Virus record (IMG/VR): IMGVR_UViG_2617270955_000003
Length of the DNA stretch: 20,009 bases
Source of the DNA: a virus
Taxonomy: Duplodnaviria; Heunggongvirae; Uroviricota; Caudoviricetes
Direction: 5' to 3' (one strand)
Shown here one piece after another: positions 949-13,683 of the stretch. The notes under the pieces were generated by a model, which searched no databases, had not been told where the DNA came from, and saw only the letters and a list, made by a program, of their open reading frames with translations. Position 1 is the stretch's first letter; each line of letters starts with the position of its first letter. The translations under genes and the position numbers were made by a program.

Positions 949-969
949 CCGCGCCGACGCGGTTTTTTT
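949..969 (+). terminator. Intrinsic-terminator-like hairpin after the capsid gene
   Basis: CCGCG-CCGA-CGCGG stem-loop followed by TTTTTTT (963..969). Confidence 0.5.
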
Positions 970-1002
970 ATGCCCGCACAGTGTTGCGGGCAGGAGTTTC
1001 TG

Positions 1003-1320
1003 ATGGCAGCAATAGTGGAAAAACTCAGGGCGCAGTGCCGTATTGATACAGATGATGCAACTGATGATGAGTTACTGATGCTGTATTTCCGGGCTGCCTG
1101 CCGCAAGGCAGAAAATTTTATCAACCGTAAGCTTTATGAGGAGACGGTGCCGGAAGGTGATCCTGAAGGGGTGCTTATAGCTGATGATGTTTTGCTGGCG
1201 CTCATGTTGCTGGTCGGGCACTGGTACGAAAACCGGGAAAATTCCTCAGATGTCAGCAAGGCACCAGTCCCGTTTGGTTTTTCTTCTCTGCTGGAGCCTT
1301 ATCGTTTTATTCCTTTGTAG
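1003..1320 (+). CDS. Head-tail connector protein (HK97 gp6-like)
   Basis: ATG at 1003 preceded by CAGGAG RBS; product has an acidic N-terminus and the ...LLVGHWYENRE... motif typical of gp6-like connectors. The track ORF start at 823 spans the terminator and is an upstream artefact. Confidence 0.8.
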   Translation: MAAIVEKLRAQCRIDTDDATDDELLMLYFRAACRKAENFINRKLYEETVPEGDPEGVLIADDVLLALMLLVGHWYENRENSSDVSKAPVPFGFSSLLEPYRFIPL

Positions 1321-1328
1321 GAGGAGAC

Positions 1329-1667
1329 ATGCAGGCGGGCAGATTACGTGATCGCGTAATTATTCTGAATGTCACCACCGCCCGCTCTCCGTCAGGGCAT
1401 CCGGTGGAGACGGTGACGGAGGGAGCTACCGTATGGGCAGAAGTTAAGGGTATCAGCGGGAGGGAGATAATCTCAGGCGGAGCAGAAACCGCTCAGGCTA
1501 CGGTCAGAGTCTGGATGAGATTCCGGCGCGATGTGACAGCGACTTCACGTCTGAAAGTGCTGACCGGTGCATTTAAAGGGGCCATTCTGGGTATAGAAGG
1601 TCCACCAATACCGGATGCACGCGCTACCCGGCTTGAAATACTCTGCAGCCTGAAGGGGAATGTGTGA
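1329..1667 (+). CDS. Head-tail adaptor / head closure protein (HK97 gp7-like)
   Basis: 112 aa; RBS GGAGGAG upstream; GRLRDRV...VWAEV...SGRE pattern typical of head-tail joining proteins; tightly packed with neighbours. Confidence 0.8.
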   Translation: MQAGRLRDRVIILNVTTARSPSGHPVETVTEGATVWAEVKGISGREIISGGAETAQATVRVWMRFRRDVTATSRLKVLTGAFKGAILGIEGPPIPDARATRLEILCSLKGNV

Positions 1668-2113
1668 TGGATTTCAGTCTTGATTTTTCCGGCCTGGCGG
1701 ATATTGCACGGGATTTGGAGACGCTCAGCAGGGCAGAAAACAATAAGGTTCTGCGCGATGCCACCCGTGCCGGTGCTGAAGTTATGCGGGATGCAGTTGT
1801 TGAACGTGCGCCGGAGCGAACCGGGAAACTGAAGAAAAATGTGGTTGTTCTCACTCAGCGTTCAAAGCGTCGGGGGGAAATTATCTCGGGTGTCCACATT
1901 CGCGGACGGAACCTGCGAACCGGAAACAGTGATAACAGCATGAAAGCCAGCGATCCCCGAAATGCATTTTACTGGCGCTTTGTGGAGCTGGGAACGATAA
2001 ACATGCCCGCGCATCCATTCATTCGCCCGGCTTTCGATACGACAGAGGAACTGGCAGCACGGATTGCCATACAGCGAATGAATCAGGCTATTGATGAGGT
2101 CTTAAGTAAATGA
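1664..2113 (+). CDS. HK97 gp10-family tail/neck component
   Basis: 149 aa; start overlaps the upstream stop (ATGA); N-terminal region resembles gp10-family proteins. Confidence 0.75.
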   Translation: MMDFSLDFSGLADIARDLETLSRAENNKVLRDATRAGAEVMRDAVVERAPERTGKLKKNVVVLTQRSKRRGEIISGVHIRGRNLRTGNSDNSMKASDPRNAFYWRFVELGTINMPAHPFIRPAFDTTEELAARIAIQRMNQAIDEVLSK

Positions 2114-2454
2114 GAGAGGCCACACTGTATTCCCTGTTGTCTCAGCTGGCCGGAGGACAGGTTTATCCTTATGTGGTCCCACTGACGGAGGGAAAGCCTG
2201 CGGTATCTCCGCCGTGGCTGGTGTTTTCTGTGGTGTCTGACACGGCATCTGATGTGCTTGATGGGCAGGCTGAATCCAGAATTACCGTGCAGATCGATGT
2301 CTGGGCGACAGTACCTGATGACGCAGATAATATTCGTGAGCAGGCGCTTGATGCGGTAAGAAAACTGGCACCCTCCGTTATTTCTAAAACGCAGGGTTAT
2401 GATCCTGACTCCCGTCTGAGCAGAGCCACGCTTGAATTTCAGGTAATAGCCTGA
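2110..2454 (+). CDS. Tail completion/terminator-like protein (DUF3168-like)
   Basis: 114 aa; start overlaps the upstream stop; positioned immediately before the major tail gene. Confidence 0.65.
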   Translation: MREATLYSLLSQLAGGQVYPYVVPLTEGKPAVSPPWLVFSVVSDTASDVLDGQAESRITVQIDVWATVPDDADNIREQALDAVRKLAPSVISKTQGYDPDSRLSRATLEFQVIA

Positions 2455-2475
2455 GGTCATTAATGATTTTACCCA

Positions 2476-12500: not shown

Positions 12501-12963
12501 TAACGAGAACTGCCGGGTTCTGGGAAAACTGTCCGCGAACCAGATTGAAGGCGATCTCGTTAAAACAGTGGGCAAAGCTTTCCCCCGTGACTCCCGGGCA
12601 CCGGAGCGGTGGCCATCAGGGACCATTACCGTCAGGGTTTATGACGATCAGCCGTTTGACCGGCAAATTGTTATTCCGGCTGTGGCATTCAGTGGCGCTA
12701 AGCATGAGAGAGAGCATACTGATATTTACTCCTCATGCCGTCTGATAGTGCGGAAAAACGGTGCTGAAATTTATAACCGTACCGCGCTGGATAATACGCT
12801 GATTTACAGTGGCGTTATTGATATGCCTGCCGGTCACGGTCACATGACGCTGGAGTTTTCGGTGTCAGCATGGCTGGTAAATGGCTGGTATCCCACAGCA
12901 AGTATCAGCGATTTGCTGGTTGTTGTGATGAAGAAAGCCACTGCAGGCATCACGATTAGCTGA
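9568..12963 (+). CDS. J: Central tail fibre / host specificity protein J, with divergent C-terminal receptor-binding region
   Basis: 1131 aa; GGAG RBS 8 nt upstream; N-terminal ~1000 aa match lambda gpJ as recalled, with fibronectin-III-like repeats; last ~145 aa are homologous to but clearly different from lambda. Confidence 0.95.
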
Positions 12964-12982
12964 ATTTTATAACCCAGATACG

Positions 12983-13007
12983 GGCACCAGAAATGGTGCC
13001 TTTTTTA
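12983..13007 (+). terminator. Intrinsic terminator after J
   Basis: GGCACC-AGAAAT-GGTGCC hairpin followed by TTTTTTATT. Confidence 0.6.
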
Positions 13008-13030
13008 TTGCAGAAAAGCGAGAGGTAATT

Positions 13031-13630
13031 ATGCGTAAATTATGTGCTGTTATTCTATCCGCAGTAGTCTGGCTGGTTGCCGCTGGTACGCCAGCGAGCG
13101 CAGCAGAGCATCAGTCCACACTAAGCGCCGGGTATCTTCAGACCCATACTGATATGCCAGGCAGTGATGACCTGAAGGGCATTAACGTGAAATACCGTTA
13201 TGAATTTACGGACACGCTGGGGCTGGTGACGTCATTCAGTTATGCCAATGCCAAAGATGAGCAAAAAACGCATTACAGCGATACCCGCTGGCATGAAGAT
13301 TCAGTGCGTAACCGCTGGTTCAGCATGATGGCGGGGCCATCTGTACGCGTGAATGAATGGTTCAGTGCTTATGCGATGGCAGGTGTGGCTTACAGCCGTG
13401 TTTCGACGTTCTCCGGGGATTATCTCCGCGTAACTGACAACAAGGGGAAAACGCACGATGTGCTGACCGGAAGTGATGACGATCGCCACAGCAACACGTC
13501 TCTGGCGTGGGGAGCTGGCGTGCAGTTTAACCCGACCGAATCCGTGGCCATTGATATTGCTTATGAAGGCTCCGGCAGTGGCGACTGGCGCACTGACGGT
13601 TTCATCGTGGGTGTCGGTTATAAGTTCTGA
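13031..13630 (+). CDS. lom: Lom outer membrane protein (Ail/OmpX/PagC family)
   Basis: 199 aa; signal peptide MRKLCAVILSAVVWLVAAGTPASA; beta-barrel OMP signature with C-terminal ...GFIVGVGYKF; GAGAGG RBS; same position as lambda lom. Confidence 0.95.
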   Translation: MRKLCAVILSAVVWLVAAGTPASAAEHQSTLSAGYLQTHTDMPGSDDLKGINVKYRYEFTDTLGLVTSFSYANAKDEQKTHYSDTRWHEDSVRNRWFSMMAGPSVRVNEWFSAYAMAGVAYSRVSTFSGDYLRVTDNKGKTHDVLTGSDDDRHSNTSLAWGAGVQFNPTESVAIDIAYEGSGSGDWRTDGFIVGVGYKF

Positions 13631-13657
13631 TTAGCCAGGTAACACAGTGTTATGACA

Positions 13658-13683
13658 GCCCGCCGGTTCAGGCGGGCTTTTTT
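13658..13683 (+). terminator. Intrinsic terminator after lom
   Basis: GCCCGCC-GGTTCA-GGCGGGC hairpin followed by TTTTTT; a corresponding hairpin follows lom in lambda as I recall it. Confidence 0.65.

Follow-up and report, generated by a model that had tools for sequence, protein, structure and literature searches.

Six hairpin-plus-U-tract elements in the late operon of a defective lambda/HK97-like Escherichia coli prophage: probable intrinsic terminators of a known lambdoid kind

Ordinary RNA polymerase is released when a GC-rich hairpin folds within its RNA exit channel and the hybrid ahead of the hairpin is a weak rU:dA one. The T-phi terminator of phage T7 is located past the capsid gene. 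The late gene clusters of SPP1 are bounded by stem-loop terminators (PMC6316719). It is textbook knowledge that the late operons of lambdoid phages contain intrinsic terminators which Q overrides, and polymerase loaded with Q is described as passing terminators for thousands of bp (PMC9388147). Putative terminators in the late operons of HK97 and HK022 are given in Juhala et al. 2000 and GenBank NC_002167. Cargo genes known as morons are defined by their own promoter and terminator, which serve for expression from repressed prophages (PMC3594210).

The window, which is the whole stretch of 20,009 nucleotides analysed here, contains a defective, lambda/HK97-like prophage of E. coli. Its late operon is on the plus strand and carries six hairpin-plus-T-run elements, all on the coding strand and each in an intercistronic gap. 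The elements were read directly, folded, and re-found by scanning, and folding energies were computed. Every late-operon gap of at least 40 nt carries one of the elements, and gaps of 14 nt or less carry none. The operon is thereby divided into capsid, head-tail joining genes, major tail plus G/GT, tape measure-M-L-K-I, J, lom, and side tail fibre. The features are as follows.

Site 1: 946..969, plus strand; predicted terminator in the capsid/connector gap; stem 946-953/958-965 with a 5-bp GC core and an A-U/G.U extension, loop CCGA, T7 run 963-969.
Second hairpin of the same gap: 972..991, plus strand; GCCCGCA/TGCGGGC, lacks a U-tract and ends at the connector-gene Shine-Dalgarno sequence AGGAG (992-996).
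Site 2: 2475..2497, plus strand; predicted terminator in the tail-completion/major tail gap; stem 2475-2481/2485-2491, loop GCT, T7 run 2491-2497, dG -12.6.
Site 3: 3916..3937, plus strand; predicted terminator in the T/tape measure gap; stem 3916-3921/3926-3931, UUCG loop, T8 run 3930-3937, dG -8.5.
Site 4: 9526..9556, plus strand; terminator-like hairpin in the I/J gap; stem 9526-9533/9538-9545, loop TCCG, dG -16.3 with flanks.
Site 5: 12982..13009, plus strand; predicted terminator in the J/lom gap; stem 12982-12989/12994-13001, GAAA loop, T6 run, dG -14.2, z -4.2.
Site 6: 13657..13683, plus strand; predicted terminator in the lom/(IS200)/stf gap; stem 13657-13664/13671-13678, 6-nt loop, T6 run 13678-13683, dG -18.2, z -3.9.
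IS200C insertion: 13684..14397, plus strand; directly after the U-tract of site 6 and outside the terminator set.
IS200 end hairpins: 13695-13715 and 14367-14385.

A sequence-only reading of this DNA had reported six GC-rich hairpins followed by T-runs in short intercistronic gaps, two of them directly before the major tail and tape-measure genes. Direct reading, folding, and scans placed all six within a few bases of the positions it gave, on the plus strand and outside coding sequence, with sites 2 and 3 as the two in question. The folding energies that it had proposed to compute are predicted to be -8.5 to -18.2 kcal/mol. All six have the stem and loop of an intrinsic terminator (a GC-rich stem of about 5-14 bp and a loop of 3-8 nt), with 6-8 pairs, 4-7 of them G-C, and loops of 3-6 nt. 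A U-tract of the expected length (about 6-9 nt directly 3' of the stem) is present as T7, T7, T8, T6, and T6 at sites 1, 2, 3, 5, and 6, respectively, and is marginal at site 4. The U-tracts adjoin Shine-Dalgarno sequences, and the stems end 22-29 nt ahead of start codons. Site 1 (dG -11.2, z -2.7) follows the major capsid gene, which is truncated by IS1. Site 2 precedes the major tail gene (ATG 2515), and site 3, which separates the tape-measure gene (GTG 3954) from the G/GT chaperone genes, is the weakest of the six, since 21 of 200 shuffles fold equally well. Site 5 lies ahead of the lom start codon (ATG 13031), and site 6 begins 27 nt past the lom stop codon.

Site 4, ahead of the J start codon (ATG 9568), has a strong stem and an interrupted T-tract, TTTTGTCGTTTAT (UUUUGUCGUUUAU), in which the first run is only a T4, followed by GTCGTTTAT. 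Given this poor U-tract, termination at site 4 may be weak or absent. Its assignment as a 'Q-dependent' terminator (hairpin, spacer, and U-tract, an idea found in PMC9388147) was rejected because the tract is interrupted and not spaced. An extended site 4 stem pairing with the J Shine-Dalgarno sequence was likewise dropped because the flanking variants do not covary.

The sequence-only reading had overlooked the 972-991 hairpin as well as the pair at the IS200 ends. Tandem hairpins in the capsid/connector gap, with compensatory changes, are also found in phage MC05 and three other relatives (L088, L089, and L095). A small ORF starting at ATG 970, past site 1, was discarded, as it shares the reading frame of the connector gene here but not in MC05. 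The IS200 insertion after site 6 is represented by an empty site in at least 35 loci, and three loci carry the same insertion.

Enrichment over chance was assessed with two scans. In the stricter scan (dG <= -8, positions 507-14404), 10 plus-strand sites were found against 0.85 +/- 1.0 (maximum 4) expected from 100 dinucleotide shuffles, while the minus strand gave two sites, both at the IS200 ends. Seven of the 10 plus-strand sites fall within the 399 intergenic nt, which make up 2.9% of the sequence (binomial p = 1.8e-9). The looser scan was barely enriched overall (26 sites vs 19.8 +/- 5); it ranked five of the six elements high, with site 3 lower (12th) and site 4 absent from its list. A search against Rfam at gathering thresholds gave no match at any of the six sites, the sole match being STnc490, inside IS200.

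The elements are conserved in position and structure and not in sequence. For the major tail gene, 80 IMG/VR loci with 97-100% identity were almost invariant and of no use for covariation; they were replaced by a scan of genome contigs with a three-protein alignment. An equivalent of site 2, consisting of a hairpin and U-tract whose end lies some 20 nt ahead of the major tail gene, was present in all 25 diverse Enterobacterales prophage loci and also in HK97, mEpX1, MC05, and phi1026b. The equivalent of site 3 stops 15-22 nt short of the tape-measure start codon in 22 of 22 Enterobacterales loci. Equivalents of site 1 past the capsid gene occur in lambda, HK97, mEpX1, Klebsiella phage MC05, and Burkholderia phage phi1026b. 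U-tracts of 6-8 nt are kept beside the hairpin in nearly all relatives.

Compensatory changes maintain the helix at two sites. RNAalifold predicted six pairs at site 2, five of which show compensatory changes; MAFFT set some of these hairpins out of register, so that the counts of 'broken' pairs are inflated. At site 5, three stem variants were found, all compensatory and including one G.U intermediate; 100% of cells were paired, and the covariation score was reached by none of 500 shuffles. Other phages carry different stems at the equivalent positions of sites 1, 3, 4, and 6; for example, PhiR49_2-type phages have a different terminator ahead of stf. In 80 IMG/VR loci examined for site 4, the stem is kept while the loop and flanks vary; a second stem type and a single U.G variant were seen. 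The G.U intermediates are on the plus strand and thus point to the sense-strand RNA as the conserved molecule.

We consider it likely that all six belong to the backbone of the lambdoid late operon as sense-strand, Rho-independent terminators of canonical type, which would be ignored by Q-modified polymerase in lytic growth and would halt other transcription in the lysogen. Strain TUM1857, which is 100.0% identical to positions 1..18506 of the window, carries a Q antiterminator gene and, 80 nt past it, a tR'-like terminator about 2 kb upstream of the window-matching region, with tRNAs and IS1 in between. The features located upstream of this operon are the Q gene and the terminator, both outside the window. 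The proposal in the sequence-only reading that the elements act as antitermination-dependent terminators is supported, as far as sequence comparison goes, by their canonical anatomy, their sense-strand orientation, the compensatory and G.U changes, the annotation of HK97 and mEpX1, and the Q gene and tR'-like terminator upstream.

In lytic growth, polymerase started at pR' and carrying Q would pass all six elements at no cost. In lysogeny, or in a defective prophage, polymerase without Q would be halted within one module, so that late genes would stay silent and cargo expression would be confined. The transcripts halted would be those from lysogen-expressed cargo such as lom, from IS1 and IS200, and from spurious promoters. 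As a secondary role, the hairpins in the read-through transcript may block 3' exonucleases. Against this account, the conservation of sites 1 and 2 as far as phi1026b makes a Q-independent function possible, and site 5 stands between any upstream promoter and lom, an arrangement that gives no ready account of lom expression in the lysogen. No sigma-70-like site was found by consensus scan near 12900-13030, and the lom ATG comes only 29 nt after terminator 5. The idea that a lom promoter overlaps this terminator was also rejected, as neither inspection nor a consensus scan gave an acceptable -35/-10 pair, be it in the window or in lambda. No literature on 3'-end mapping at the six positions, in this prophage or its relatives, was found, and nothing in Owen et al. 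2020 or Tree et al. 2014 bears on them; PMC7547250 cites Term-seq data for EHEC Sakai (GSE143631), a strain whose Sp prophages have tail regions about 79% identical to the window.

Cargo insertion recurs at one slot, which is marked by the site ahead of the tape-measure gene. In 20 of the 22 relatives, diverse cargo genes lie immediately upstream of the pre-tape-measure terminator, and at least eight kinds of cargo occupy this slot; terminators are also present in empty slots (the window, PhiR49_2, and locus L107). No cargo gene precedes sites 1, 2, 4, and 5 in the window, so that an insulating role for these four would be an argument from analogy. We tentatively suggest, as a possibility on the doubtful side, that the terminators reside in the operon backbone and have taken on a second role, in which they offer safe landing slots for cargo without activation of downstream late genes and also supply segment-stabilising 3' hairpins in the read-through transcript. 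The terminator would then have come first and the moron second, which reverses the usual picture of each moron bringing its own terminator.

The elements might alternatively serve RNA stability or processing, with hairpins that, once the long late transcript has been cut by an endonuclease, shield the RNA upstream of them from 3' exonucleases or, as 5' stem-loops, protect the RNA downstream, and with a U-tract that is incidental or a ribosome-binding enhancer. We regard this as unlikely. Conserved hairpins lacking U-tracts do occur in the same kind of gap (972-991, and past the major tail gene of HK97, mEpX1, and MC05), and both the position of the U-tracts beside Shine-Dalgarno sequences and the conservation of sites 1 and 2 out to a Burkholderia phage would suit it. 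However, the conserved U-tracts of 6-8 nt are needed for termination and not for exonuclease blocking. The stems of 6-8 bp are also short, unlike RNase III sites; a T7-type site has an imperfect stem of at least about 20 bp with an internal loop, and only the stem of site 4 was predicted to extend, weakly.

It is about equally improbable that the elements act as partial terminators, or attenuators, in lytic growth, where a stepwise fall in late mRNA dose would help to set virion stoichiometry. In the window, as in lambda, HK97, and phi1026b, an element lies directly past the gene for the most abundant protein, the capsid, and the low-copy tape measure and J stand behind several of them; the SPP1 late clusters are likewise bounded by stem-loop terminators (PMC6316719). 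Site 2, however, lies ahead of the gene for the abundant tail tube, whereas an attenuation ladder would call for the reverse, and lambda, with the same tail gene order and tail type, lacks sites 2 and 3. Sampson and co-workers (PNAS, 1988) reportedly ascribed the late-gene ratios of lambda mainly to translation initiation. Q-loaded polymerase is moreover resistant to termination (PMC9388147), and the suggestion in the sequence-only reading that the elements set stoichiometry found no support. Finally, DNA-level features with no RNA role, such as cargo insertion scars, docking sites, or junctions for mosaic-module recombination, would account for the insertions of relatives at the T/tape-measure junction (20 of 22) and before the major tail gene of locus L101, for those at the I/J junction and before I in HK97, for lom at the J/stf junction, and for IS200 directly past site 6, but are very improbable because every site lies on the sense strand, compensatory and G.U changes preserve an RNA-type helix, and terminators are found in empty slots too.

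With homologous sites annotated in HK97 and mEpX1, the feature reported here is already known and carries little weight as a discovery. For annotation, the predicted terminators account for every sizeable intercistronic gap of the tail operon and mark module boundaries. The modest addition is the near-universality of terminators before the tail-tube and tape-measure genes, which may be of modest use for studying late-gene silencing alongside cargo expression in prophages and is relevant to engineering payload insertion sites in temperate phages.

Compared with described systems, the resemblance to SPP1 and T7 is limited to hairpin terminators between late-cluster genes, often past the capsid gene; these phages are unrelated, use another polymerase or regulation, and have no sequence homology. 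As in a moron cassette, lom is followed by its own strong predicted terminator (site 6, dG -18.2), and the GC content of the lom region is 0.50 against 0.58-0.59 for J. The window differs from such a cassette in that four of its six predicted terminators follow no cargo gene and that its pre-tape-measure terminator sits in an empty slot. Conservation in lambda and HK97, which the sequence-only reading had named as a check, held for part of the set in each phage. Lambda has hairpin-plus-T elements past E, between I and J, between J and lom, and past lom, corresponding to sites 1, 4, 5, and 6, and shares the logic of Q read-through (pR'-tR') and lom as a lysogen-expressed gene. Its I/J element is nearly identical in sequence to site 4, whereas its J-lom hairpin is in the same place as site 5 with an unrelated sequence. 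No such element precedes V or H in lambda, in which just 7 nt separate U from V and T overlaps H, and an additional element lies between D and E. HK97 has equivalents of sites 1-4 and, having no lom, lacks those of sites 5 and 6. In the GenBank records of HK97 (NC_002167) and mEpX1 (JQ182727), the positions homologous to sites 1-4 bear terminator annotations, including the following.

HK97: 6692-6719, homologue of site 2; 8398-8422, homologue of site 3.
mEpX1: 6645-6670, homologue of site 2; 8350-8373, homologue of site 3.

Both phages differ from the window in their stem sequences and carry another hairpin at the position of site 4, and HK97 has a cargo gene (gp15) ahead of the tape-measure terminator and extra sites before I. 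The proteins flanking the sites are 51-87% identical to those of the window, and the sites lie, as here, past the major head gene and before the major tail, tape-measure, and J genes, each as a hairpin-plus-U-tract about 20 nt ahead of the next start codon.

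The window was assigned to a lambdoid prophage of E. coli, being 100% identical to strain TUM1857 over positions 1-18506 and 100% identical to ST131 strains such as JJ1886 over 502-18506. Gene order was taken from the RefSeq annotation of the matching locus, with window coordinates equal to locus coordinates minus 2000 and a 1-nt shift after lom. The major capsid gene is truncated by IS1, which leaves its C-terminal 139 codons. Just upstream of IS1, TUM1857 carries the Q antiterminator gene, a tR'-like terminator 80 nt after Q, tRNA-Ile, tRNA-Arg, and the STnc100 sRNA; the prophage has therefore lost its lysis, terminase, portal, and protease genes and, with this deletion, is defective. 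The annotated features, with the virion genes on the + strand, are as follows.

to about 447, - strand: IS1
507-926: HK97-type major capsid gene, C-terminal fragment
1003-1320: head-tail connector
1329-1667: head closure
1667-2113: gp10-like
2110-2454: tail completion
2515-3219: major tail protein with Ig domain
3234-3605: G
to 3907: T (frameshift product)
3954-7181: tape measure
7159-9507: M, L, K, I
9568-12963: J
13031-13630: lom
about 13684-14397: IS200C
from 14406: side tail fibre genes

The window diverges from TUM1857 after 18506, and the - strand stretch 18544-19772, directly after the tail-fibre genes, encodes a 341-aa tyrosine integrase and a DUF4224 protein; the divergence points to an adjacent integrative element or to a prophage that ends differently in the source genome. 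A 674-aa antisense ORF inside J (10168-12192, - strand) has no Pfam match and most likely arises from the GC-rich J codon pattern rather than being a gene.

All six hairpin-plus-T elements proposed in the sequence-only reading were confirmed by direct reading of the sequence. They are numbered here as sites 1-6 (capsid/connector, tail completion/major tail, T/tape measure, I/J, J/lom, and after lom), and folding energies computed for 36-nt RNAs were -11.2, -12.6, -8.5, -16.3, -14.2, and -18.2 kcal/mol, respectively, with z-scores ranging from -1.3 (site 3) to -4.2. A T run of 6-8 abuts the stem in five of the six; the tract of site 4 is TTTT followed by GTCGTTTAT, and this site may be a weak terminator. 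In a looser terminator scan, five of the six elements were among the top matches (site 3 lower, site 4 absent), and the total barely exceeded chance (26 versus 19.8 +/- 5). A stricter scan of the late region (dG <= -8, T at five or more of 8 positions and at three or more of the first 4) returned 10 sites on the + strand versus 0.85 +/- 1.0 expected from 100 dinucleotide-preserving shuffles, which excludes a chance origin of the elements, and 2 sites on the - strand, both at IS200 ends. Intercistronic sequence accounts for 399 nt (2.9%) of the late region and contains seven of the 10 + strand sites (p = 1.8e-9). Each + strand gap of at least 40 nt contains an element, gaps of 14 nt or less contain none, and the hairpins seem to be the reason for the gaps.

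Wider conservation was assessed by scanning one genome per species with three aligned major tail proteins as the query, which yielded 25 loci (57-79% tail protein identity) from genera including Providencia, Pectobacterium, Brenneria, Serratia, Klebsiella, Leclercia, Kosakonia, and Symbiopectobacterium. A hairpin plus U-tract ends approximately 20 nt before the major tail start in all 25, with at least six different stem sequences, and RNAalifold applied to the MAFFT alignment recovered six pairs at this site, five with compensatory changes. Such an element also ends 15-22 nt before the tape-measure start in all 22 loci with a visible start, so that both terminators are near-universal in this tail-module family. 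In the betaproteobacterial Burkholderia phage phi1026b (L273), which has an HK97-type module and a tail protein 39% identical, elements follow the capsid gene and precede the major tail gene (1994-2056 and 3738-3798), and none was found before the tape-measure gene.

For the J-lom and I-J hairpins, close relatives were compared, with 80 IMG/VR loci each. The J-lom stem has three versions (GGGCACC/GGTGCC, GGGCGCC/GGCGCC, and GGGCGTC/GACGCC), and one G.U intermediate was seen; all stem substitutions preserve pairing (100% of cells paired), and the covariation score was reached by none of 500 shuffles. The loop and flanks of the I-J hairpin vary around a stem that is constant except for a single U.G variant and one further type of stem. 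The evidence of compensatory evolution is clean, and the fact that G.U intermediates are tolerated only in the + strand RNA favours a structure formed in the transcript over a DNA cruciform.

The pre-tape-measure terminator marks a recurrent cargo slot. Between T and this terminator, 20 of 22 relatives (L084-L112) carry 280-1700 nt of diverse, mostly + strand cargo (HK97 gp15/YebO-like proteins, several lipoproteins, membrane proteins, a TPR protein, and a reverse-oriented antirepressor-like gene), and the terminator always lies between cargo and tape-measure gene. The slot is empty and the terminator present in the window (3908-3953), PhiR49_2, and L107; thus, the terminator does not depend on cargo. 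In locus L101, 840 nt are inserted ahead of the major tail gene, with a terminator on either side.

Judged by anatomy, orientation, placement, and evolution, the six elements are intrinsic terminators, as the sequence-only reading had proposed for an antiterminated operon, with termination itself and read-through by Q being predicted. Lambdoid late transcription is carried out by polymerase that picks up Q at pR'; once loaded, it ignores terminators over thousands of bp, because the nozzle formed by Q keeps hairpins from forming (PMC9388147; PMC7547250). Read naturally, the six sites would be silent in lytic growth and would act only on polymerase without Q. Morons have been described with their own promoter and terminator, allowing expression from a repressed prophage (PMC3594210), and action on Q-less polymerase would fit such cargo-gene logic through a putative insulating effect. 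No lom promoter was found, and terminator 5 ends just 29 nt before the lom ATG. A literature search found no published 3'-end map of these sites; Term-seq data do exist for EHEC Sakai, which carries homologous prophages.

An added role in RNA stability or processing is possible, being consistent with conserved hairpins in the same gaps that have no U-tract (972-991, and a stem-loop after the tail gene of HK97, mEpX1, and Klebsiella phage MC05), although the conserved U-tracts are what termination requires. An attenuation ladder that would set stoichiometry, a role raised in the earlier reading, matches the terminator after the capsid gene but is unsupported, since a terminator precedes the abundant tail-tube gene and lambda has no sites 2 and 3. 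A pure DNA-level scar or recombination site is contradicted by the strand bias and RNA-type covariation.

The second GC-rich hairpin of gap 1 (972-991, GCCCGCA/TGCGGGC) lies after terminator 1, ends at the connector gene's Shine-Dalgarno, and is kept with compensatory changes in MC05, L088, L089, and L095. The predicted stem of site 4 reaches toward the Shine-Dalgarno of J, and its flanking variants showed no covariation. A TTTATG(G/C) motif recurs directly 3' of U-tracts, just before the Shine-Dalgarno (window 963-975 and 9550-9559; many loci). IS200C (tnpA 13827-14285; Rfam STnc490 13694-13817) separates the lom terminator from the ribosome-binding site of stf, the insertion point following the U-tract exactly. 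At least 35 IMG/VR loci have the empty site GGGCTTTTTTGTGGAGTGGATATGG, and three (L114 type twice, L141) have the same insertion. On the - strand of the late region, only the IS200C end hairpins (13695-13715 and 14367-14385) resemble terminators.

The comparison with lambda and HK97 suggested in the sequence-only reading located lambda elements at four equivalent places: after E (with another between D and E), at I/J with almost the same sequence as in the window, at J/lom with unrelated sequence, and after lom. Before V and H, where lambda genes abut or overlap, there are none. In the HK97 GenBank record, features named 'putative terminator' follow the major head gene, stand on both sides of the major tail gene, and precede the tape-measure gene (downstream of the gp15 moron), I, and J. 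The mEpX1 record labels the same places 'rho-independent terminator', so homologues of sites 1-4 had been annotated already. Sites 5 and 6 are part of the lom region, which is absent from HK97. Terminators of this kind are already known, and the additions made here are modest and quantitative, namely the near-universality of two terminators, the compensatory evolution, and the cargo slot before the tape-measure gene.
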